The position numbers and the translations under genes are program-made. A stretch of DNA of 64,000 nucleotides from Acidobacteria bacterium RIFCSPLOWO2_12_FULL_68_19 (GTDB lineage Bacteria; Acidobacteriota; Vicinamibacteria; Vicinamibacterales; UBA2999), in the NCBI GenBank assembly GCA_001767525.1, contig MELF01000045.1:41277-105276 (forward strand), given 5' to 3'. This document shows positions 304 through 53,957 of the stretch, piece by piece; positions within the stretch are counted from its first letter, which is position 1, and each line of letters begins with the position of its first letter. Below the pieces are notes generated by a model. The model saw only the letters and a program-made list of their open reading frames with translations, did no database searches and was not told the DNA's origin.

Positions 304-525
304 ATGAAGTCAACCGCCGATGCGCTGCGCGCGGCCACGCGCGCGGTTGCCGGCGCCGAGAGTCCGGCGGAGCGCGTCGTGCAGGCCTTCAGACTGGGCG
401 ACGAGGACCTGCGGGCGTACGCCGAGGCCAGGGGCATCACGCTGCGGGCGGCGCGCCTCGACATCGTGCGCCGCCGGGCCGCGAGCCGCCGCCCGAGCGC
501 GTCCGCGGATCCGACGCGCCCGTGA
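304..525 (+). CDS. small hypothetical protein, possible antitoxin-like partner of the downstream NTase-fold protein
   Basis: Internal ATG of ORF 154..525 (MKSTADALRAA...), 73 aa. Its stop overlaps the next start in GTGA at 522-525, which suggests translational coupling. Confidence 0.35.
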   Translation: MKSTADALRAATRAVAGAESPAERVVQAFRLGDEDLRAYAEARGITLRAARLDIVRRRAASRRPSASADPTRP

Positions 526-1049
526 CGCTGTTCAGCTCCACGCTCGACCTGCTCCAGCGCGAGCATATTCCCTGCGCCCTCATCGGCGCCGGCGCCCTCG
601 CGGTGCACGGCATCGCGCGGTCGACCTTCGACATCGACCTGCTCACGACCAGCCCGCGGGTGCTCGAGGCCGCCTTCTGGGAGCCGCTCTCCGCGGAGGG
701 GGCGGCCGTCGAGGTCCGCCCGGGCGGCCACGACGACCCGCTGCGCGGGGTGGTGCGGCTGCAGCACGCCCGGGACCGCGACGTGGACATCGTCGTGGGC
801 CGGCACGACTGGCAGCGCGACGCGCTCGCCCGCGCCGTGGCGGCGCGCGTCCTCGGCGCCGAGGTGCCGGTCGTCACGACCAGCGACCTGATCCTGCTCA
901 AGCTGTACGCCGGCGGCCCGCAGGACTTGTGGGACATCGAGCAGCTGCTCGCGGATGCGGACGGCGAGGTGCGCGGTGAAGTCGATCTGCGGGTGAGGGC
1001 GCTTCCCCTGGAATGCCGGCAGCAGTGGACGGGTTTTCGGGTGCGATAG
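522..1049 (+). CDS. small nucleotidyltransferase-fold protein (TA-module-like)
   Basis: 175 aa. The N-terminus LDLLQREHIPCALIGAGALAVHG..RSTFDIDLL fits the G-x-hG ... DxD pattern of minimal pol-beta-fold NTases. Confidence 0.5.
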   Translation: MTLFSSTLDLLQREHIPCALIGAGALAVHGIARSTFDIDLLTTSPRVLEAAFWEPLSAEGAAVEVRPGGHDDPLRGVVRLQHARDRDVDIVVGRHDWQRDALARAVAARVLGAEVPVVTTSDLILLKLYAGGPQDLWDIEQLLADADGEVRGEVDLRVRALPLECRQQWTGFRVR

Positions 1050-2461: not shown

Positions 2462-3712
2462 ATGAGCGATCAACGGGTTCACGTCTTCGATACGACGCTG
2501 CGCGACGGCGAGCAGGCGCCGGGGTTCTCGCTCCGAGTGACCGAGAAGCTGCAGCTCGCCCGTCAGCTCGACCGGCTCGGCGTCGACATCATCGAGGCGG
2601 GGTTCCCGATTGCCTCGCCGTCCGACGCGGAGGCGGTCCGGCGCATCTCCCAGGAGATTCGGCGGCCCGTAATCGCCGCGCTGGCGCGCTGCCACCGCGC
2701 CGACCTCGAGAAGGCCGCCTGGTCGCTCGAGCCGGCCGCGCGCGGCCGGATTCACACTTTCATTGCCACCTCGGATTTGCACCTCCAGGCGAAGCTCCGC
2801 ATCAGCCGCGAGCAGTGTCTCGAGGCGGCCGTCGACTCCGTGCGCTTCGCGCGCCAGCAGACCGACGACGTGCAGTTCTCGGCGGAGGACGCCACGCGGA
2901 GCGATCTGGATTTCCTGTGCCGCGTCGTCGAGGCGGTGATCGAGGCCGGCGCGACGACGGTCAACCTGCCCGACACGGTCGGGATCGCCACGACCGACGA
3001 GACGCGCGAGTTCTTCACGGCGATCCGCCAGCGCGTGCCGAACGCCGACCGGGCGATCTTCAGCGCGCACTGCCACGACGATCTGGGTCTGGCCGTCGCC
3101 AACTCGATCGCCGCCGTGCAGGGGGGCGCGCGCCAGGTGGAGTGCACGGTGAACGGCATCGGCGAGCGGGCGGGGAACGCGGCGCTCGAAGAGATCGTGA
3201 TGGCGTTCTACGTGCGGCGCGATCGGTTCCCGTACGAAGTCGGCGTCGCGCACAAGGAGATCTACCCGTCGAGCGAGCTGCTGACGCGCCTGAGCGGCCA
3301 GCCGGTGCAGGTCAACAAGGCGATCGTCGGGCGCAACGCGTTCGCCCACGAGGCGGGCATCCATCAGGACGGCATCCTGAAGGACCGCCGCACCTACGAG
3401 ATCATGCGGGCCGAGGACGTCGGCGCGCCGTGGAATCCGCTCGTGCTCGGCAAGCACTCGGGACGCCACGCCGTGCAGAAGCGCTGCAAGGACCTGGGGC
3501 TCGAGGTCGAAGGCGCGGAGCTCGTCGAGGTCTACCGCGCGCTGATGGCGATTGCCGACGATCGCAAGATCCTCACCGACAACGACGTCATCGCCGTCGT
3601 CAGCGGCGTCCGGACCGCACAGCCCGGCGGCGCCGGACACGTCGATCCCTTCGACACGCCGTCGAAGGTCGCGCACGCCCTGCCCGAACGCGGCTACGAC
3701 CATGGGGTGTAA
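2462..3712 (+). CDS. 2-isopropylmalate synthase / homocitrate synthase family protein, short form lacking the C-terminal regulatory domain
   Basis: 416 aa. [19 protein letters not shown]...HTFIATS...[13 protein letters not shown]...[12 protein letters not shown] is collinear with the LeuA catalytic barrel and subdomains. It ends about 100 aa before the usual LeuA_dimer domain. Confidence 0.85.
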
Positions 3713-3720
3713 CTCCAGGT

Positions 3721-3776
3721 GGTAGCCGGTAGCCGGTAGGTGGTGGCCGGTAGGTGGTAGCCGGTAGCCGGTAGCT
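3721..3776. repeat. tandem repeat, 8 x 7 bp (GGTAGCC consensus)
   Basis: ggtagcc ggtagcc ggtaggt ggtggcc ggtaggt ggtagcc ggtagcc ggtagct. It sits in the convergent spacer between the leuA-like and mscS genes. TAG recurs every 7 nt, so all three plus-strand frames are stopped. Confidence 0.9.
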
Positions 3777-4857
3777 ACTCGCGCTCCATGTGCATCGTCA
3801 TGAACGGCTTGGCCAGTTCGATGCCGCGCTCGGCGAAGAGCCGGGCAATCCGTCTTCGCAGCTCGCGTCCCACTATCCACTGCTTCATCGGGACGGTCTT
3901 GATGCGCCCCTTGACGACGAGCTGTCCAGGCTCGAACGCGTCGATCCCGTAGACCTCCAGCGGCTCCAGGATGTGCGGCGTGAACGCCGGGTCCTCCAGG
4001 AGCGTCGCGGCCGCCTCGCGCATCGCGTCGATCGCCCGGTCGACGTCCTCGTCATAGCCGAGCCCGACCGTCAGCACGTAGTACGAGAAGTCCTTCGACA
4101 TGTTGGCGAGCGTCTTCACCTCGCCGTTCGGAAAGATGTGTACCGTGCCCGCCTCGTCCCGGAGCACGATGGTCCGCAGGTTCACTTGTTCCACCAGCCC
4201 GCCCTGCCCGTTGACGACGGCGACGTCGCCGACGCGGACCTGGTCCTCGAGAATGAGAAAGAAGCCGGAGACCACGTCGCGCACCAGCGTCTGCGCGCCG
4301 AAGCCGACCGCGAGCCCCGCGATGCCGGCGCCGGTGAGCACCGGCGTGATGTCGATGTCGAGCTCGCGGAGGATCATCAGTCCCGCCATGCCGGCGACGA
4401 CGATGGAGAGCGTCTTCTGCAGCAGGCGGCCGAGCGTCTGCGCGCGCTTGGTCCGCTCGATGACGTCGAGGCCGGTACCATGGCTCATCTCCCGCTCGAG
4501 CCGCCGCGCCGCCGCCGACGCGATGCGAACGATCAGATAGGCGGCAATCGCGATGACGACGATCCGGAGGCCGACCTCGAGCAGCCACCGCCCGACGGCC
4601 TGGGGGTTGGCGCCGAGGCCCGTCTGGAAGCCGGCGAGGCGCATGGCCGGGAAGATCAGCGCGGCGGCGGCCACCAGGAAGATCGTCACGCGGATGATGC
4701 GGCGCGGGCGATCGACGAACGCCCGCTCGGCGGCCGGGTCTGCGATCACCGCGCCGAGCGTCGACTGAACGACGCGGGCCGCCAGATCGGCGGCGAGGTA
4801 CGCCCCGGCGAGCACCAGCGCGACCGCCAGCGTCAGTTCAGGCCAGTTGGTCGGCAT
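3775..4857 (-). CDS. mechanosensitive ion channel (MscS family)
   Basis: 360 aa with N-terminal TM helices. The conserved MscS core is LVRDVVSGFFLILEDQVRVGDVAVVNGQGGLVEQVNLRTIVLRDEAGTVHIFPNG. Confidence 0.9.
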   Translation of the reverse strand: MPTNWPELTLAVALVLAGAYLAADLAARVVQSTLGAVIADPAAERAFVDRPRRIIRVTIFLVAAAALIFPAMRLAGFQTGLGANPQAVGRWLLEVGLRIVVIAIAAYLIVRIASAAARRLEREMSHGTGLDVIERTKRAQTLGRLLQKTLSIVVAGMAGLMILRELDIDITPVLTGAGIAGLAVGFGAQTLVRDVVSGFFLILEDQVRVGDVAVVNGQGGLVEQVNLRTIVLRDEAGTVHIFPNGEVKTLANMSKDFSYYVLTVGLGYDEDVDRAIDAMREAAATLLEDPAFTPHILEPLEVYGIDAFEPGQLVVKGRIKTVPMKQWIVGRELRRRIARLFAERGIELAKPFMTMHMERE

Positions 4858-6474: not shown

Positions 6475-6485
6475 GGTTCGATTGT

Positions 6486-6569
6486 AACTCCCAACTCCCA
6501 ACTCCCAAGCTTCGGGCGTTGGGTCTTGGGCGTTAGGTCTTGGGCGTTGGAGCTTGGGAGTTGGGCGTT
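6486..6569. repeat. heptad-phased palindromic repeat element, 12 x 7 bp (84 bp)
   Basis: (AACTCCC)x3 AAGCTTC, then GGGCGTT GGGTCTT GGGCGTT AGGTCTT GGGCGTT GGAGCTT GGGAGTT GGGCGTT. The left C-rich arm is complementary to the right end (at least 14 bp, gcttgggagttggg). It lies in the hsp20/efp divergent spacer. Confidence 0.85.
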
Positions 6570-6606
6570 CGCGATGTGCTAGCATCGGTGGGATCGACCG
6601 ACAACG

Positions 6607-7170
6607 ATGGCTTCCATACAGGCGACACGGCTCAAGAAGGGTATGCTGGTCAAGATGGGGCAAGATCTGTTCCGCGTCATCGACCTCCAGCACGTGACTC
6701 CCGGCAACCTCCGCGGCTTCGTCCGCGTCAAGCTGCGGAACATCCGCAACGCGACGCTGTCGGACCAGAAGCTGCGGTCCGAGGATTCGGTCGAGCGGGC
6801 GACGCTCGACGAACGGGAGATGCAGTACCTCTACAAGGACGGCGACGATCGCTATTTCATGGACACCAGCACCTACGAGCAGGTGCACATCTCGATTGAG
6901 GCGCTCGGCGACTCGGTGAACTTCCTCAAGCCGGAGATGACCATTCAGGTGGAGTTCTACGGGACCGAGCCGGTCGGCATCGAGCTGCCGCAGACGGTCG
7001 ACCTGAAGGTGCTCGACACGGTGCCCGGCATCAAGGGAGCGACCGCCAGTGCCCAGGTGAAGCCGGCGACGCTCGAGACCGGGCTCGTCGTGCAGGTGCC
7101 GCCGTTTGTCAACCCCGGCGACATGATCCGCGTCAACACGGAAACCGGCGAATACCTGTCGAGAGCATGA
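6607..7170 (+). CDS. efp: elongation factor P
   Basis: 187 aa, collinear with bacterial EF-P (QHVTPGNLRGFVRVKLRN ... GIKGATASAQVKPATLETG ... GEYLSRA). Confidence 0.95.
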   Translation: MASIQATRLKKGMLVKMGQDLFRVIDLQHVTPGNLRGFVRVKLRNIRNATLSDQKLRSEDSVERATLDEREMQYLYKDGDDRYFMDTSTYEQVHISIEALGDSVNFLKPEMTIQVEFYGTEPVGIELPQTVDLKVLDTVPGIKGATASAQVKPATLETGLVVQVPPFVNPGDMIRVNTETGEYLSRA

Positions 7171-10424: not shown

Positions 10425-11195
10425 TCACTGCAGCAATGCCCAGAGCCCCAGGCCCGCGGCGGTCGGGTCGCCGAGCCAGTCGGGGGGCGTCAGCCAGACG
10501 AACGCCAGGATCGCGATCACCCACGCGTCGTAGGGGATCGTCGTCCGCTCGTCCCGCCAGAAGAAGGCCCGCCAGAATGCCCGGCCGGCAGCGGTCGTGC
10601 CGGCCGGCATCGGCCGGCCGCTGAGCACCAGATGGGTGTAGTGGATCCGGTTGATCACCGTCACGACCGACAGGAGCAGGATGACCCACAGGACCCCGGC
10701 CATGCGGTCGGTGAAGGCGCCGATCATGAAGAGCACGATGCGCTCCGGCCGCTCCATGAAGCCCACCTTGCACTTGTCGATGAGCGACTCGGCGCGCGCC
10801 CGGGTGTAGCTCGTCATGATCGAGAAGAGCATCGTGAGCGCCGCCACCATCACGTAGTCGGTGCGCCGGAGGTCGGCGTAGAGGTAGATCACGCCGATGA
10901 ACAGGGCGAGGTCCGAGAACCGGTCGAGGGTCGAGTCCCAGAAGGCGCCGAACCGCGACACCGTGTTCGTCAGGTGCGCGACCTTGCCGTCGATGAAGTC
11001 GAAGATGTTGGCGACGATCATCATGACGCCGGCCAGGAGGAACCGATCGACGCCGAGAGCCCAGGCGGCCGCCACGTTCACGAGCACGCCGATGAGCGTC
11101 AGCGCGTTGGGGTGGATGCCGAGGGCGACGCTGCCTGCGATGATGGCGCGCAGCGGGAACATGCAGACGGTTCCCACCAGGCCGGTGAATGTCAT
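10425..11195 (-). CDS. CDP-alcohol phosphatidyltransferase family protein
   Basis: 256 aa, polytopic. Signature DFIDGKVAHLTNTVSRFGAFWDSTLDRFSD (D-x2-DG-x2-A...G-x3-D-x3-D). Confidence 0.85.
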   Translation of the reverse strand: MTFTGLVGTVCMFPLRAIIAGSVALGIHPNALTLIGVLVNVAAAWALGVDRFLLAGVMMIVANIFDFIDGKVAHLTNTVSRFGAFWDSTLDRFSDLALFIGVIYLYADLRRTDYVMVAALTMLFSIMTSYTRARAESLIDKCKVGFMERPERIVLFMIGAFTDRMAGVLWVILLLSVVTVINRIHYTHLVLSGRPMPAGTTAAGRAFWRAFFWRDERTTIPYDAWVIAILAFVWLTPPDWLGDPTAAGLGLWALLQ

Positions 11196-11251
11196 CGGTT
11201 GTAATAATGAGAGGTGTTCGTCGCCGTGATCCGCGTCGAATAGAGTAGCCC

Positions 11252-13129
11252 ATGCCGATCCACGACCTCAAGGAGCAGATTGCGCGGCTGCCGGAGCAGC
11301 CGGGCGTCTACCTCTGGGGCAACGCCGCCGGCGAGACGATCTACGTCGGAAAGGCGCGGGCGCTGAGGGATCGCGTGCGTAGCTACACGGGCGCGGCGGG
11401 CCTCAGTCCGCGCCACGACGCGCTGCTCGACGAGATCGCCTCGCTCGAGGTGATCGTCACCGACTCGGTGATGGAAGCGCTGGCGCTCGAGAACAATCTG
11501 ATCAAGCAGCGCCGGCCCAAGTACAACATCCTGCTTCGCGACGACAAGAACTACCCCTACCTGCAGCTCACGACGAGCGAGGCGTGTCCGCGCATCCTGG
11601 TGGCGCGCCGGGTGGAGAAGGGGGATGATTTCTACGCCGGCCCGTTCCTTCCCGCGAAGCTCGCGCGAAAGACGATGGCGCTGGCGCACCGGCTGTTCGG
11701 GATCCGGTCGTGCAGCGAGGTGATTACGGGGCGGCGTGGGCGGCCCTGCCTCGAGCACGACATCAAGCGCTGCATCGCCCCGTGCGTCGCCGAGATCTGC
11801 AGCCACGAGCGTTACGCGGCCGCGGTCGAGAATGCGAAGCTGCTCCTCGCGGGGCGCACCGGCGAGCTTGCCGACACGCTGCAGGCGCGCATGCAACAGG
11901 CCGCCGACGCCGAGCGCTACGAGGAGGCGGCGCAGCTGCGCGACGCGCTGCGCACGGTGCAGACGCTGCGCGATCGGGAGCAGAAAGTGGCGACGCCGGA
12001 GCTTGGCGATCGTGACGTCTTCGGCCTCAAGATCGGCCCGAGCGGCGGCGCCATTCAGCTCTTCGCCGTGCGGGGGGGGCGCGTCATCGAGCGCGTCGAG
12101 CTGGGGGTGGAGCCGGGGCTCGTCCGGCGCGAGGCCGAGGTGCTGCAAGCGGCGCTGCAGGAGTTCTACGGGGACCGCGTACCGCCGGCGGACATCCATC
12201 TCCCGTTCGAGATTGAGGACGCCGAGGCGCTCGGGGCGTGGCTGTCGAATCGCGCGGGCCGGCGCGTGCGGGTCACTGTGCCGCTCCGTGGCGACAAGCG
12301 GGCGCTCGTCGAGCTGGCGACGCGCAACGCGGAGCTCTCGTACCGCACGCGGTTCAACGAGGCCACCGCGGCGCACTTCGAGGCGCTCGAAACGCTGCGA
12401 TCGACTCTCGGGCTGCCGGCGATGCCGCGGCGCATCGAGTGCTTCGACATCTCGACGATCCAGGGGAGCGAGACCGTGGCGTCGATGGTCGTCTGCGACG
12501 ACGGCCGCATGAAGAAGTCGGAGTACCGCAAGTTCCGCATCAAAGGGCTTCGGGCTTCGGGCCTCGGGCGTCAGGCCACCAGAGCCCAAGGCCAGGAGCC
12601 CAAGGCTCACGGCCCAACGCTCAGAGCCCTGCCGGACGATTTCGCCGCGATGCGGGAGGTCGTTCAGCGGCGCTACCGCAAGGTGATGGAGGAGGGCGGG
12701 CCGTTTCCGGCTCTGATCGTCATCGACGGTGGCAAAGGGCAGGTGACTGCCGCCTATGACGCACTCGAGTCGATCGGTCTGGGCAACCTGGTGGCGGTCG
12801 GGATCGCCAAGCGGGAGGAACTGCTCTTCACCCGCGACCGGTCCGAGCCGATCGCGCTCGCCGAGCACGACCCGGCGCTGCTGCTCCTCGAGCGCATCAG
12901 GGACGAGGCGCACCGGTTCGCCGTCGCTTTCCACCGCAAGGCGCGCTCGATGCGCGACCTCCGCTCGGAGCTCGACACCGTCCCCGGCATCGGCCCGCGG
13001 CGGCGGCGGGCGCTCCTCACCGCGTTCGGGAGCCTGGCCGGTGTTCGCCGCGCCACCCGCGAGGAACTGGGCGCAGTGATCGGACCGAAAGCCGCTGCCG
13101 CGGCGATCGACTACTTTGCGAAGTCGTGA
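11252..13129 (+). CDS. uvrC: excinuclease ABC subunit C
   Basis: 625 aa. N-terminal GIY-YIG (PGVYLWGNAAGETIYVGKA), a UVR domain, an Endo V-like domain and a C-terminal (HhH)2 (VPGIGPRRRRALLTAFGS). It carries a 28-aa in-frame insert encoded by a heptad repeat. Confidence 0.95.
   Translation: MPIHDLKEQIARLPEQPGVYLWGNAAGETIYVGKARALRDRVRSYTGAAGLSPRHDALLDEIASLEVIVTDSVMEALALENNLIKQRRPKYNILLRDDKNYPYLQLTTSEACPRILVARRVEKGDDFYAGPFLPAKLARKTMALAHRLFGIRSCSEVITGRRGRPCLEHDIKRCIAPCVAEICSHERYAAAVENAKLLLAGRTGELADTLQARMQQAADAERYEEAAQLRDALRTVQTLRDREQKVATPELGDRDVFGLKIGPSGGAIQLFAVRGGRVIERVELGVEPGLVRREAEVLQAALQEFYGDRVPPADIHLPFEIEDAEALGAWLSNRAGRRVRVTVPLRGDKRALVELATRNAELSYRTRFNEATAAHFEALETLRSTLGLPAMPRRIECFDISTIQGSETVASMVVCDDGRMKKSEYRKFRIKGLRASGLGRQATRAQGQEPKAHGPTLRALPDDFAAMREVVQRRYRKVMEEGGPFPALIVIDGGKGQVTAAYDALESIGLGNLVAVGIAKREELLFTRDRSEPIALAEHDPALLLLERIRDEAHRFAVAFHRKARSMRDLRSELDTVPGIGPRRRRALLTAFGSLAGVRRATREELGAVIGPKAAAAAIDYFAKS
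12545..12628. repeat. heptad-phased repeat element, 12 x 7 bp (84 bp), in frame inside uvrC
   Basis: GGGCTTC GGGCTTC GGGCCTC GGGCGTC AGGCCAC CAGAGCC CAAGGCC AGGAGCC CAAGGCT CACGGCC CAACGCT CAGAGCC. It starts on a codon boundary and encodes GLRASGLGRQATRAQGQEPKAHGPTLRA. Confidence 0.7.
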
Positions 13130-13192
13130 GGTGTCACGTCGGGCCGCGGGTCGGCGGGCGCGGACGTGCGGCGACCCGATGTGTGCGGCAGG

Positions 13193-14047
13193 TCAGCGCA
13201 GCCCGGACACGCCGGGATAGATCCGGTAACCGAGGCCGAAGAGAGGCTCCGTGTTGCGCTCGCCTTCGTGGCACGCTTCTTCGAACAGTTCGAGGTTGCG
13301 TTCCTTGTTGCGTCTGAGGGGGAACGCCATCGTCCACGGACGCGTATAGACGGCTGGATCCTCGATCGTGGCGGCGACGTGGATCGTGTCGGGATCGATC
13401 GGCGTGAACCGCATGACGATGTGGGCCCGTTCCGAGTAGAAGTTCCCAGCCTGGTCGAACCACGGTCGCCCGTTGAGACTGGTGACGTCGGCGACCAAGG
13501 TGCGCCCCTCCCAGCGTCCGCGGAAATCTCCCTGCCACAGTCCAACCTCTTGGCCGACGTGCGGACCCGCGTCAGTCGGAATGATCCAGTACGTGTGTGC
13601 CCGTTCGAAGAGCACGATGACGTACCGCGGCGCCTGGAGAATCTGGATCGTGGTGGGAGTGTAGAGCGACCGCGGGACGCCGGATGGGAAGCACGGCACG
13701 TTTGGATCGACGTACCGTGCCTTGTTCTCGTCGCGCTGGGCGGCCGCCCAGGGCTGATAGGGAATTCTACCGTCCGGCGGGTCGATGACGAGACTCGGCC
13801 CCCCATTGTCGTCCTCCGTCTTGGGATGGGCCTCGATGCTCTCGGTGGCGGCGCCTGGTCCGCGCCAGAACCCGCTCAGATCGGTTCGGCCGTCCGAGGT
13901 CCGGGGCGGTTCGAAGACCGCCGCCCGCGCCAGTGCACAGGGATGAAACCGAGCCGGGTCGGCCGGACAACCCTCCTGCGCCGAGGTCAGCGGCGCCGCC
14001 AGCACGGCGACGGCAACCGCTGCCCCGACACAGGCTGAGAACCTCAC
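13193..14047 (-). CDS. secreted hypothetical protein, paralog 3
   Basis: The GTG at 14047 overlaps the upstream stop (GTGA 14044-14047), and a signal peptide (VRFSACVGAAVAVAVLAAPLTSA) follows. Blocks DGRTDLSGFW, IPYQPWAAA, C.PSGVPR, GDFRGRWEGRTLVAD and YTRPWTM. Confidence 0.7.
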   Translation of the reverse strand: MRFSACVGAAVAVAVLAAPLTSAQEGCPADPARFHPCALARAAVFEPPRTSDGRTDLSGFWRGPGAATESIEAHPKTEDDNGGPSLVIDPPDGRIPYQPWAAAQRDENKARYVDPNVPCFPSGVPRSLYTPTTIQILQAPRYVIVLFERAHTYWIIPTDAGPHVGQEVGLWQGDFRGRWEGRTLVADVTSLNGRPWFDQAGNFYSERAHIVMRFTPIDPDTIHVAATIEDPAVYTRPWTMAFPLRRNKERNLELFEEACHEGERNTEPLFGLGYRIYPGVSGLR

Positions 14048-53745: not shown

Positions 53746-53861
53746 GTGCGAGGGTGCGACGGTGCGAGGGTGCGAGGGTGCGTCCGACGGTGCGAGGGTG
53801 CGAGGGTGCGATCGTGCGATCGTGCGAGGGTGCGATCGTGCGATCGTGCGAGGGTGCGAGG
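53746..53861. repeat. tandem repeat, 14 units of 8 bp (GTGCGAGG / GTGCGATC variants; one 12-bp unit)
   Basis: Read directly. Unit order is GAGG,GACG,GAGG,GAGG,(gtgcgtccgacg),GAGG,GAGG,GATC,GATC,GAGG,GATC,GATC,GAGG,GAGG. It starts 7 nt after the ubiB stop. Confidence 0.9.
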
Positions 53862-53957
53862 GTCCGGCGATTCGAAAGCGTCCGGCAGCGCCATGGCGCC
53901 GTCGCAGATCGGTCCGACGAACGATATGGCTCCGCTGGGAACGATTACGCGCGCTCG

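Follow-up and report, generated by a model that had tools for sequence, protein, structure and literature searches.

How does an array of seven-nucleotide units come to lie in frame within the DNA-repair gene uvrC, and is it an element that entered one genome or a long-standing part of the gene? The question is raised by a stretch of 64,000 nucleotides from Acidobacteria bacterium RIFCSPLOWO2_12_FULL_68_19 (hereafter the window), in which twelve heptads (84 nt) occupy positions 12545–12628 of the forward strand.

The array and its host gene

The host gene, uvrC (11252–13129, + strand), is an intact open reading frame encoding 625 aa, and its product is 100% identical to the "excinuclease ABC subunit C" of Acidobacteria bacterium RIFCSPLOWO2_02_FULL_68_18. 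Pfam matches to GIY-YIG, UVR, UvrC_RNaseH, UvrC_RNaseH_dom and HHH_5 are all present, the UvrC_RNaseH_dom match being split into two stretches. The protein possesses the features that define UvrC, namely GIY-YIG, UVR, two RNase H-like domains, (HhH)2, the catalytic Asp/Asp/His and the equivalent of Asp438; in a pairwise alignment with the E. coli K-12 protein, D399, D463, D492 and H554 of the window protein correspond to D399, D438, D466 and H538.

The array starts on a codon boundary ((12545 − 11252)/3 = 431) and is translated, as residues 432–459, into GLRASGLGRQATRAQGQEPKAHGPTLRA. Its units are, in order, GGGCTTC, GGGCTTC, GGGCCTC, GGGCGTC, AGGCCAC, CAGAGCC, CAAGGCC, AGGAGCC, CAAGGCT, CACGGCC, CAACGCT and CAGAGCC. 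Run on the window, TRF reports a period-7/14 array at 12545–12577 and a period-14 array at 12582–12629, and the period-7 self-match of the 84 nt is 0.62, compared with a mean of 0.274 (sd 0.058) over all 84-nt intervals of the 64 kb; three places, 3715–3800, 6480–6575 and 12544–12629, reach this value. When the element was shuffled 20,000 times, the self-match rose to 0.49 at most (z = 6.5). By period and self-match, the units are tandem and head-to-tail, as in a heptameric simple sequence repeat (SSR). The sequence-only reading had described twelve heptads in frame within an intact uvrC, and the sequence, the frame, TRF, the shuffles and the Pfam matches all bear this out.

Two arms can be recognized. 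The G-rich left arm (12545–12576, +) consists of the first four units followed by AGGC and is reported by TRF at period 7 with 94% matches. The C-rich right arm (12580–12631, +), which runs from the first CAGAGCC unit through the last and a trailing CTG, is an imperfect complement of the left, as indicated by the period-14 TRF match, DNA alignment and folds. The left arm carries four G3 tracts at 7-nt spacing on the sense strand, one per unit, and these make up a formal, putative G-quadruplex motif (G3N4G3N4G3N4G3, 12545–12569). With mutations in two of its four left units, unequal arms and a weak hairpin (z of −2.5/−2.1 with RNA parameters and −1.1/−1.4 with DNA parameters), the window copy is a partly decayed member of its class of arrays. 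Four independent assemblies (ENA, NCBI GCA_001767065.1, JGI) agree on all 84 nt, which rejects the assembly artefact that the sequence-only reading had allowed for, and an identical UvrC protein is encoded on ten contigs from different samples.

Placement in the UvrC protein

The position of the array in the protein was established by aligning its sequence with those of 2NRT, 3C65 and E. coli UvrC. On the left, the codons for YRKFRIK (12524–12544, +; residues 425–431) specify a conserved β-strand that aligns with DYRRYKI of T. maritima UvrC (2NRT) and EYRRYNI of E. coli and is kept in all orthologs. On the right, the codons for D462–D463 (12635–12640, +) begin the conserved DDFAAM helix, D463 being the equivalent of E. 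coli Asp438, a residue that the title of Lin and Sancar (1992, cited in PMC7835731) places among those of 5'-incision. The variable loop is bounded by YRKFRI[KR] and DDFAAM and lies two residues ahead of the Asp438 equivalent. The HMMER alignment to 2NRT breaks exactly at the array site, and the Acidiferrales/gp2 lineages carry independent, non-periodic insertions of 12–37 aa at the identical site; both observations argue that the loop is permissive, and the alignments place the array within it, in the C-terminal RNase H-like 5'-incision domain, where it separates the third strand from the first helix. An AF2 model of the full-length protein built with 50 close homologs is poor (mean pLDDT 61, pTM 0.39) and was used only for the remark that residues 431–460 appear in it as low-confidence coil (pLDDT < 40). 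The alignment to solved structures, taken with this poor model, suggests that the loop lies outside the fold, despite a site only two residues away from the Asp438 equivalent; the window array is probably translated as a disordered loop of 28 aa that is most likely neutral for UvrC function.

Extra solvent-exposed loops are tolerated by the C-terminal nuclease domain of other UvrC proteins as well, such as the 17-aa Loop1 of D. radiodurans and the 13-aa insertion of H. pylori (PMC10085695). Loop1 was considered as a possible occupant of the same site and rejected: going by the distances within the catalytic triad (D391/D459/H535 in D. radiodurans, D399/D492/H554 in the window), it would lie between the second catalytic Asp and the His, whereas the array lies between the first and the second Asp. 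Unlike Loop1, the loop described here is built from repeat DNA.

The site across the Vicinamibacterales

Outside the order Vicinamibacterales, the linker between the two conserved blocks has 5 aa in nearly all other Acidobacteriota, 6 in E. coli (TGITPG) and about 3 in T. maritima (2NRT), so that the figure of about six residues given in the sequence-only reading was right. Within the order, it varies from 4 to 91 aa in about 160 UvrC orthologs, made up of 120 homologs at 78–89% identity (5–54 aa, median 25.5, with 7 aa or fewer in only three) and 40 genome loci (4–91 aa; L numbers below). Most Vicinamibacterales inserts have 7 as their best period (self-match 0.55–0.76); no insert at this site from outside the order does. 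The orthologous arrays span 33–108 nt and usually consist of a G-rich arm, often of four GGGNNNN units, followed by its complement; the unit sequence varies by lineage, while the G-rich-first orientation and the exact junctions do not change anywhere in the order. Orthologs carry repetitive segments of variable length at this position, not non-repetitive ones of equal length. The notion of a repeat tolerated as a protein insertion stands insofar as the segment is extra relative to UvrC outside the order, the gene is intact and the array is kin to the intergenic heptads of the same genome. It fails insofar as a discrete element was thought to have been inserted into the uvrC of this genome: essentially every Vicinamibacterales lineage has a heptad array at the exact site, which implies that the seeding event is ancient.

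In a neighbour-joining tree, the insert occurs in every Vicinamibacterales clade and the short-linker lineages are nested within insert-bearing clades; since it has been lost in these nested lineages, the array is dispensable. L037 retains an array remnant, AAGGGGCCCAAAGCC. In L013 and L031 the linker is SVTA, which resembles the SVEGA/SVVGA of the outgroup, and a lineage in which the array was never present, or a recombinant, may fit at least as well as precise loss. Given the tree and the shared position and orientation, a single ancient seeding and several early events would be indistinguishable.

The relatives also document how the array changes. DNA alignment shows that the window, L081, L082 and L083 share a GGGCTTC/GCCCARA array with unequal unit numbers. 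The left arm of L081 consists of four perfect GGGCTTC units homologous to the window left arm, and the window right arm exceeds those of its closest relatives, L081 and L082, by a clean 21 nt (3 heptads). In this clade, the left arm differs by 13%, compared with 31–43% at 4-fold sites. L001, an equally close relative, has the unit GGGATCC where L082 has GGGCTTC, despite 93% protein identity. Lineage-specific pairs of units are found elsewhere, including GGGAGTC/GACTCCC in L019, GGGGCTC/GAGCCCC in L010 and GGGCTCC/GGAGCCC in L025. L019 has perfect units in both arms, four GGGAGTC and three GACTCCC; among its sister lineages L024, L026 and L023, the array has been lost or is built of another unit. 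Perfect arrays of this kind are, on comparison of these sequences, younger than the lineage splits.

Every one of the approximately 160 orthologs is in frame at the site. This bears on the proposal of a phase-variation (contingency) locus, in which the gain or loss of one or two heptads would toggle uvrC and produce a reversible repair-deficient subpopulation. A 7-nt unit that is not a multiple of three, located inside an ORF and differing in number among relatives, would suit such a locus, but out-of-frame alleles are absent from the orthologs and from the four identical assemblies, the truncated uvrC ORFs of L070 and L078 are intact at the site and broken elsewhere, and the ten contigs encode the same protein. 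The tracts are also short, with two perfect units here and about four at most in relatives, far below the long perfect tracts typical of contingency loci. We consider this explanation barely credible.

The peptide itself bears the mark of the repeat. Across the 120 proteins, residue autocorrelation peaks at lag 7 (0.226, against 0.08–0.12 at other lags), which indicates that the composition of the insert is dictated by the DNA repeat; G, P, S and R account for 53% of its residues. The GC content at codon positions 1/2/3 is 0.79/0.68/0.71 in the window array as opposed to 0.72/0.46/0.90 in the rest of uvrC, and the array is open in all three sense frames. With this third-position GC, this residue composition and three open frames, the insert is not shaped as coding sequence. 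A functional protein loop, in which the extra residues near the active-site helix would serve as an order-specific flexible tether or partner-binding loop, could be invoked on the grounds that hardly any member of the order lacks the insert, that it lies so close to the Asp438 equivalent and that lineage-specific loops of the UvrC RNase H domain, such as Loop1 of D. radiodurans, have been proposed as partner sites (PMC10085695). Set against this are a complete lack of sequence conservation, the range of lengths, repeated loss and a composition set by the DNA repeat with codon-position GC unlike that of coding sequence, and we regard a functional loop as very improbable.

Heptad arrays elsewhere and known repeats

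Two further heptad arrays are present in the window, and the three all have different units. An intergenic palindrome at 6486–6569, detected by TRF and folding (hairpin z of −3.9/−3.2), consists of three AACTCCC units followed by eight G-rich units of the GGGCGTT/GGGTCTT type and lies between a divergent gene and efp (ATG at 6607). The sequence-only reading had likened it to the uvrC array, and the two do share the 84 nt, the 12 heptads and the strand switch; the arm order is reversed, C-rich first, and the equal length is a coincidence, as the 33–108 nt span of orthologous uvrC arrays makes clear. The second, about eight GGTAGCC units at 3717–3777 (TRF), fills the gap between the convergent ORFs 2462–3712 (+) and 3775–4857 (−). 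In the 831 kb of Vicinamibacterales DNA sampled, there are 54 heptad arrays, or 65 per Mb, while no other period from 4 to 12 exceeds 11 arrays (13 per Mb); period 7 is over-represented in this sample, compared with three heptad arrays in 689 kb (4.4 per Mb) of other Acidobacteriota. An inverted partner is present for 21 of the 54. Altogether, 140 heptad arrays reduce to 90 distinct canonical units, many of them AT-rich and lacking G3; the arrays of one genome differ from each other, with no single dominant unit. A common, fixed 84-bp element of the kind first envisaged is not supported, as these 90 units yield no consensus and even the GGGCTTC-type arrays of relatives differ in unit number. 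In the sampled loci, every array outside uvrC lies between genes or at the end of one, which leaves the uvrC copy as the exception; two that appeared to lie within coding sequences (L005, 5910–5957; L076, 14342–14384) proved to be at gene ends or between genes.

One explanation that we find possible but doubtful is recurrent insertion or ectopic gene conversion, whereby heptad palindromes are mobile or exchangeable and the uvrC loop, like the spacer upstream of efp, is a repeatedly hit target. Such a process would explain lineage-specific units and abrupt replacements, of which the L001/L082 pair is an example. The efp spacer array of the window is absent at the orthologous site of L082, and arrays of other units occupy the spacer in L005, L013, L014, L002 and L022. 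The uvrC array of L009 (CCCGAGT) shares its unit with an array just downstream of the gene (CCAGAGT/CCCGAGT), and unit types recur at unrelated loci in unrelated genomes: AACTCCC at 6486 in the window, in the L014 uvrC insert and in L076, and GGGCTTC, according to a metagenome scan for GGGCTTCGGGCTTCGGGC, as arrays in at least 120 contigs of 36–74% GC, so that this unit is widespread. A precedent is provided by the Rickettsia palindromic elements (RPEs), palindromic repeats of about 100 bp that lie in frame in housekeeping genes, where the added peptide is tolerated by the fold (PMC10969869). Against recurrent insertion, there is no family consensus, and elements within one genome differ. At the uvrC junctions (ATCAAA|GGGC...GCCC|TGCCGGAC) no direct repeat representing a target-site duplication was seen and there are no conserved termini, and the same is true of the efp spacer when the filled window site and the empty L082 site are compared. 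None of 80 GGGCTTC loci sampled among the metagenome matches listed lies in uvrC or resembles the uvrC element beyond the unit. Finally, orientation and junctions are constant order-wide, and close relatives vary unit number within a homologous array.

Among bacterial heptamers, the GGGGA(C/T)T repeat of Nostoc corresponds to the cyanobacterial STRR heptanucleotides. It was described together with the GGGAATC repeat of Xanthomonas as a G-rich heptamer SSR by Rehm et al. (2015, PMC4692102), who also review the long-known over-representation of heptamers among long bacterial SSRs, for which no mechanism or function had been established. The arrays described here resemble those repeats in unit structure (7 nt in tandem, with a G3 tract), in their abundance within each genome, in the excess of period 7 and in a frequent count of four units; in the convergent inverted arrangement of many arrays, which gives them the potential to form hairpins (70 of 186 in X. 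campestris and 21 of 54 in the present sample); and in a mostly intergenic location, with a minority overlapping ORFs, at sites that are shared by related species and highly variable in length and sequence. They differ in that there is no single consensus and in that the uvrC copy is translated, deep inside an essential-type gene, and persists at one codon-level position order-wide, which we did not find reported for the repeats of Rehm et al. The intergenic TAACTGA heptamers of Beggiatoaceae, Cyanobacteria and Bacteroidetes (MacGregor 2015, PMC4679880) are likewise abundant in tandem in restricted lineages near gene starts, but they have one fixed unit, are direct repeats only and are a proposed binding site for a translational regulator, whereas the units here are diverse and often palindromic, and one array is translated. 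RPEs and intragenic MITEs share with the uvrC array an in-frame repeat that adds a tolerated peptide to a housekeeping gene. RPE families, in contrast, have a conserved sequence and encoded peptide and spread by transposition, while uvrC arrays conserve neither, lack both a family consensus and a target-site duplication, and change unit number in place; their palindrome is formed by inverted heptad arrays and is strong in L019, L010, L025 and L032 and weak in the window. The arrays do not resemble REP/BIME elements, imperfect palindromes of 20–40 nt that carry a conserved GTAG/CTAC head and are mobilized by RAYT transposases, in that they have no GTAG head or fixed palindrome. The uvrC array belongs with the known bacterial heptameric repeats, from which its translation, its order-wide fixed position and the diversity of units among these arrays set it apart; our literature search found no report of heptanucleotide repeats in Acidobacteria.

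Nucleic-acid structure

Hairpin z values range from −3 to −8.6 in 8–10 lineages, with strong palindromes (−6.6 to −8.6) in L019, L010, L025 and L032, and are near 0 in about half of the lineages. When arms were swapped between lineages, the native right arm was the best partner in 4 of 29 and among the top three in 7 of 29, a modest signal from a test that is limited by the GGG/CCC heptads common to all arms. Exactly four G3 tracts at 7-nt spacing, counted from the left junction, recur in the window, L081, L010, L015/L020, L019 and L025, or about five independent lineages.

These features could reflect a selected structure, a hairpin and/or a sense-strand four-tract G-quadruplex that modulates uvrC expression or local DNA metabolism, for instance through pauses in transcription or translation, an effect on mRNA stability or a switch between G4 and hairpin, with the peptide as a by-product. 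The arms co-vary, so that the palindrome is kept while its sequence changes; the recurrent four-tract count matches the four-unit preference of quadruplex-forming heptamers in Xanthomonas and Nostoc (PMC4692102); and the left arm of the window clade is more conserved than 4-fold sites. On the other side, about half of the lineages have no significant hairpin, several have lost the whole array, and the window hairpin is non-significant as DNA. G3 tracts are missing from the arrays of L002, L003, L009 and L076 and from most intergenic arrays. Sense and antisense strands, compared as a test for an mRNA-level hairpin with G-U pairs, show no difference in folding (Wilcoxon p = 0.86), and a structure at the mRNA level is therefore not indicated. 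A search of positions 11000–13400 against Rfam at E <= 1 gave no match, a promoter and terminator scan of 12300–12900 found nothing, and no function emerged for the analogous repeats studied by Rehm et al. (PMC4692102). Overall, selection on a structure seems unlikely.

A broader version, to which we attach similarly little weight, would have a lineage-specific, sequence-independent process build and renew inverted arrays in 7-nt steps at fixed sites, the uvrC palindrome being kept because its hairpin or four-tract G-quadruplex acts on uvrC, for example as a sensor in uvrC DNA or mRNA through which UvrC synthesis responds to structural stress on the DNA. If this were true, arm co-variation, left-arm conservation and the recurrence of four G tracts would reflect selection or dedicated machinery, not slippage alone.

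Probable evolution of the array in place

With ever-changing 7-base arrays occupying the site across the whole order, the uvrC segment is a long-lived, tolerated SSR rather than a one-off insertion, and it behaves as an SSR and not as a transposed copy. The explanation that we favor, with a probability of roughly 60%, is that a heptanucleotide SSR was seeded once in the permissive loop and that slippage and hairpin-templated copying have reshaped it there ever since, with maintenance of the reading frame as the only filter. The array, an inverted pair whose G-rich arm is separated by a short spacer from its C-rich complement, would have been seeded in the UvrC loop of the Vicinamibacterales ancestor and retained since. 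Replication slippage in 7-nt steps would alter unit number, the difference of 21 nt, or three units, between the window and its closest relatives being one observed case, and units would be homogenized inside each arm. A hairpin in which one arm serves as template for the other (quasi-palindrome or template-switch correction) would account for the joint change of unit in the two arms. That the array can also be deleted in part or almost entirely is shown by remnants such as that of L037. Selection appears to see only effects at the protein level, that is, a length that is a multiple of three, no stops in three sense frames and a non-disruptive peptide, and the tolerated product would be hydrophilic, rich in G, P, S and R and kept out of the fold. 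Slippage and hairpin-templated correction are established mechanisms elsewhere and may operate in the uvrC array as well. Two observations could require more than this: the abrupt unit replacement between L001 and L082 could represent ectopic conversion from another array or a fresh insertion, and the slow left arm together with the recurrent four G3 tracts could reflect selection on a structure rather than neutrality.

Implications

The uvrC array amounts to a natural experiment, in which a conserved single-copy gene holds a non-triplet, hairpin-forming repeat at one and the same codon position and records its turnover in hundreds of orthologs. The flanking codons fix homology exactly and serve as a molecular clock, so that unit gain and loss, replacement and arm copying can be measured as rates in uvrC, which intergenic arrays do not allow. 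The comparison of orthologs illustrates how repeat DNA can create a protein loop beside a nuclease active-site residue, and resize it from 4 to 91 aa, with the enzyme not destroyed, which is relevant both to the origin of protein insertions and to how Acidobacteriota genomes are annotated and aligned. Should the array turn out to have a function, it would be a rare case of a structured DNA or RNA element embedded in a repair gene.

Results and discussion

The uvrC gene of the window (G+C 69%) is an open reading frame of 625 residues at 11252–13129 in which Pfam found all UvrC domains. It is 100% identical to the annotated excinuclease ABC subunit C of the metagenome-assembled genome 'Acidobacteria bacterium RIFCSPLOWO2_02_FULL_68_18', which the window matches; the closest relatives of the window carry the label Vicinamibacterales. 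Twelve heptads at 12545–12628, starting on a codon boundary, encode GLRASGLGRQATRAQGQEPKAHGPTLRA and comprise four G-rich units (GGGCTTC, GGGCTTC, GGGCCTC, GGGCGTC), a transition unit (AGGCCAC) and seven C-rich units of the CAGAGCC/CAAGGCC type. Both halves were picked up by TRF, and the period-7 self-match is 0.62, compared with a mean of 0.274 (sd 0.058) when every 84-nt segment of the 64 kb is scored and a maximum of 0.49 in 20,000 shuffles of the element; values of at least 0.62 occur at three places only in the 64 kb, namely here and in the intergenic arrays 3715–3800 and 6480–6575. Given these statistics and the identity of the 84 nt in four independent assemblies (ENA, NCBI, JGI), the in-frame heptad repeat described by the sequence-only reading is real and non-random, and not the assembly artefact for which that reading had allowed.

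The strand YRKFRIK precedes the insert and the helix beginning DDFAAMREVVQRRY follows it, all within the RNase H-like domain for 5' incision at the C terminus; Pfam aligns its profile of the C-terminal RNase H endonuclease domain in two separate stretches. Sequence alignment sets D399, D438, D466 and H538 of E. coli K-12 UvrC opposite D399, D463, D492 and H554 of the window protein, so that the insert ends two residues ahead of the equivalent of Asp438, which Lin & Sancar 1992 name with three other residues in their title, as cited in the reference list of PMC7835731. The spacing of about six residues that the sequence-only reading gave for other UvrC proteins agrees with E. coli (TGITPG), with the T. 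maritima structure 2NRT (about 3 unaligned residues) and with the non-Vicinamibacterales Acidobacteriota (5). The 17-aa 'Loop1' of D. radiodurans was considered as the same site and rejected, since its position differs: judged by how the triad residues are spaced, it would lie after the second Asp and before the His. The alignment puts the insert between strand and helix; an AF2 model, for which 50 close homologs were used, was of low quality (mean pLDDT 61) and is cited only for rendering residues 431–460 as low-confidence coil. Most likely, the insert is translated as a disordered loop that is neutral for function.

An insertion private to the window genome is contradicted by the ortholog alignment, in which long linkers between the YRKFRI and DD blocks occur throughout Vicinamibacterales: they measure 5–54 aa (median 25.5) in the best 120 homologs (78–89% identity), and 7 aa or less in only 3 of these. 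The inserts resemble translated repeats (GSGIGDR, RIPDPGS, KPKAQSP, GLRASGFGL), and residue identity in the 120 homologs is highest at lag 7 (0.226 versus 0.08–0.12 at other lags), as expected of a 7-nt DNA period, which recurs in frame after 21 nt. A scan of species-representative genomes gave 80 uvrC loci; the linker is 4–91 aa in the approximately 40 from Vicinamibacterales and 5 aa (TVEGV, SVEGA) in nearly all Terriglobia and other Acidobacteriota. Most Vicinamibacterales inserts have 7 as their best DNA period (self-match 0.55–0.76) and vary in length, so non-repetitive ortholog segments of the same length are not the pattern. Members of the Acidiferrales/gp2 group (L040, L041, L043, L047, L049, L050, L056–L059 and L061, within loci L038–L061 of the related genomes and metagenome contigs that we number with L) have independent, non-periodic inserts of 12–37 aa at the same loop (e.g. 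GEAMPDCADKSEGRLR), none with 7 as the best period, which indicates that this UvrC loop is permissive in general. A neighbour-joining tree built from the protein minus the insert shows inserts in every Vicinamibacterales clade and places the short-linker taxa in nested positions; in L013 and L031, the linker SVTA looks like the outgroup state and may reflect either a loss or a lineage that never had an array.

Two related lineages have uvrC inserts of 77–91 aa (L034, 10129–10400; L021, 11297–11530), in which a long stretch without periodicity comes after a CGGGGCT heptad arm; about 117 nt of this stretch are directly duplicated in L034 (SSMAMLGRPGDAVDPPAPAAAASGESASRAAA twice), so the loop enlarges by other routes too. 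The metagenome-assembled genome ERP125453_co2_124 (L001, L037) has one uvrC gene whose linker is a GGGATCC-type insert of 31 aa and another in which it is the 5-aa KGPKA; its label 'uncultured Bifidobacteriaceae' is clearly wrong for this Vicinamibacterales-like sequence, and probably the bin is a mixture or has been misassigned.

In the usual architecture, a G-rich arm directly follows the YRKFRI[KR] codons and is separated by a non-periodic spacer from a C-rich reverse-complement arm, with units that differ among lineages: GGGAGTC x4 ... GACTCCC x3 (L019), CGGGGCT x4 ... CCCGAGC x3 (L010), GGGAGCC ... TCCCCGN (L015/L020), GGGCTCC ... GGAGCCC (L025), GGGATCC ... CGGATCC (L001) and GGCTTNN ... 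GCCCAAA x4 (L002). The L009 array (2149–2292) is one-sided, with about 20 CCCGAGT. Long hairpins fold well beyond shuffled controls in 8–10 lineages (z −3 to −8.6), and z is near 0 in about half of the lineages; the window hairpin is intermediate to weak (z −2.5/−2.1 with RNA parameters, −1.1/−1.4 with DNA parameters), and the window copy is a partly decayed member of the uvrC arrays. In the window, L081, L010, L015/L020, L019 and L025, the left junction opens a series of exactly four G3 tracts spaced by 7 nt, and such a left arm is, formally, a putative G-quadruplex motif. When arms were swapped among lineages, the native right arm was the top partner in 4/29 and among the top three in 7/29, a signal that is real but modest because GGG/CCC heptads are common to all arms. 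Selection on a hairpin or G-quadruplex could account for this co-variation, for the four G tracts and for a slowly changing left arm, which differs by 13% in the clade of the window and L081–L083 versus 31–43% at 4-fold degenerate sites of uvrC; we consider it quite improbable, as decay and loss are frequent and the sense and antisense strands of the uvrC inserts fold equally (Wilcoxon p = 0.86), which gives no specific pointer to mRNA structure.

Heptad arrays are abundant beyond uvrC. We counted 54 period-7 arrays in 831 kb of Vicinamibacterales DNA (65 per Mb), 21 of them lying no more than 200 nt from an inverted partner, whereas no other period between 4 and 12 exceeded 11 arrays in the same DNA; 689 kb of other Acidobacteriota contained 3 period-7 arrays. 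The 140 arrays examined comprise 90 distinct canonical heptads, many AT-rich and stop-codon-rich, and the sampled loci have no family consensus, not even inside one genome; their non-uvrC arrays are all intergenic or at gene ends. A second hot spot lies in the intergenic gap ahead of efp, where an 84-nt AACTCCC/GGGCGTT palindrome (6486–6569) separates a divergent gene from efp in the window; the same spacer has no array in the close relative L082 and arrays of other units in L005, L013, L014, L002, L022 and L078/L021. No target-site duplication is visible at the uvrC or the efp-spacer site. An array of about eight GGTAGCC units at 3717–3777 fills exactly the gap between convergent ORFs (ends 3712 and 3775), a potential bidirectional 3'-end structure. 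Among the long periods in the Vicinamibacterales loci, 8 ranks second (9 arrays versus 54 for period 7), and the window itself has a long non-heptad SSR at 53746–53863, about 15 tandem copies of the 8-nt unit GTGCGAGG (variants GTGCGATC) right after a TAA stop.

A metagenome scan with GGGCTTC x2.5 matched at least 120 contigs of 36–74% G+C. The matches listed are seemingly mostly intergenic, often just past stop codons and often with a complementary array following them; two of those listed are in frame within genes. The first, on a contig of an unrelated organism with 58% G+C (L098, Ga0181528_10048127, ~430–620, minus strand), is a 31-aa palindromic GGGCTTC/GAAGCCC insert, RASGFGPRASANPGDNSSDDSAEARQPKPEA, in mnmG/gidA, where the Pfam GIDA match spans 300 residues on 269 profile positions. 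The second (L136, SXGT01611030.1, ~1600–1700, minus-strand match) consists of GAAGCCC heptads read in frame as PEARSPK x3 in the linker joining the E3-binding and catalytic domains of a 2-oxoacid dehydrogenase E2 subunit. Loops and linkers thus host in-frame heptad arrays rarely, but uvrC is not the sole case.

Close relatives document how the uvrC array changes. L081, L082 and L083 (87–90% UvrC identity to the window) have a homologous array, which in L081 reads GGGCTTC x4, perfect, then ACCCAAA GCCCACA GCCCAGA GCCTAAA GCCC; relative to L081, the left arm of the window has two substitutions, neither of them compensated, and its right arm is longer by 21 nt, which equals exactly three heptads; L083 contains additional units. 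The protein of L001 is just as close (93% identity to L082), yet its unit, GGGATCC, is wholly different, and the sisters of L019 (L024, L026, L023) have another unit or mere remnants where L019 has perfect units. Judged from these alignments, perfect arrays must be younger than the lineage splits, and short linkers look like deletion remnants: the L037 linker AAGGGGCCCAAAGCC (KGPKA) corresponds to the left-arm start fused to the right-arm end, and the clade-specific right junction 'RFL/RFQ' is still present in L026 and L023.

Long runs of successive different heptads on the metagenome contigs L127, L129, L161, L103 and L156 (for example, GGGCTTC x3, then GGGAACT x6, then GGGAGTT xN) suggest unit turnover inside one array. 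In L009, the uvrC array and an intergenic array at 2791–2848, about 500 nt downstream and just beyond the uvrC stop, nearly share their unit (CCAGAGT/CCCGAGT), which, alone among our observations, hints at exchange between adjacent arrays.

Recurrent insertion, or ectopic conversion from other arrays, would fit the abrupt replacement of units and the unit shared within L009, but it is unlikely in view of the lack of a consensus, termini or target duplications and of the constancy of junctions and orientation. The composition of the insert bears signs of tolerance rather than coding selection: GC at codon positions 1/2/3 is 0.79/0.68/0.71 versus 0.72/0.46/0.90 in the rest of uvrC, G, P, S and R make up 53% of residues, and sequence and length are both unconserved, with repeated loss. 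All three sense frames are open and two of three antisense frames contain stops; open sense frames are needed because a heptad array is read through the three frames by turns. Against this background, a loop with a function in the protein is very improbable. The site is in frame in all orthologs, the truncated ORFs L070 and L078 being broken elsewhere, and phase variation is scarcely credible. What survives of the original interpretation is a tolerated, translated repeat akin to the intergenic ones; insertion of a discrete 84-bp element into this genome finds no support.

We favour, with a probability of about 0.6, an inverted-pair heptanucleotide SSR that was seeded once in a permissive UvrC loop of the order's ancestor and evolved in place. 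Such evolution would involve slippage by 7-nt steps, of which the 21-nt difference is an example, with survivors only at net multiples of 3 nt. Units within an arm would be homogenised, copying from arm to arm templated by the hairpin may change both arms jointly, with quasi-palindrome correction as an analogue, and the array would at times be deleted, as the remnants attest.

Conclusion

The closest described kind are the G-rich heptameric repeats of Xanthomonas (GGGAATC) and Nostoc (GGGGAYT), which are abundant, chiefly intergenic, prefer four units, form convergent inverted pairs (70/186), overlap ORFs in 7–11% of cases and occupy the same intergenic sites with variable length in related species, their function being unknown (PMC4692102). 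The Vicinamibacterales arrays share all these traits except a dominant unit, and the uvrC copy adds to those reports (PMC4692102) a translated array fixed at one codon position order-wide. In its outcome, an in-frame palindrome in a housekeeping gene, it is like the Rickettsia palindromic elements (PMC10969869); unlike mobile families, it has neither consensus nor target-site duplication. Our literature search found no report of heptanucleotide repeats in Acidobacteria. There is no evidence for a new mechanism or function; the uvrC site is an uncommonly clean and deep natural record of a non-triplet, hairpin-forming repeat inside a conserved gene, adjoining an active-site residue of UvrC.
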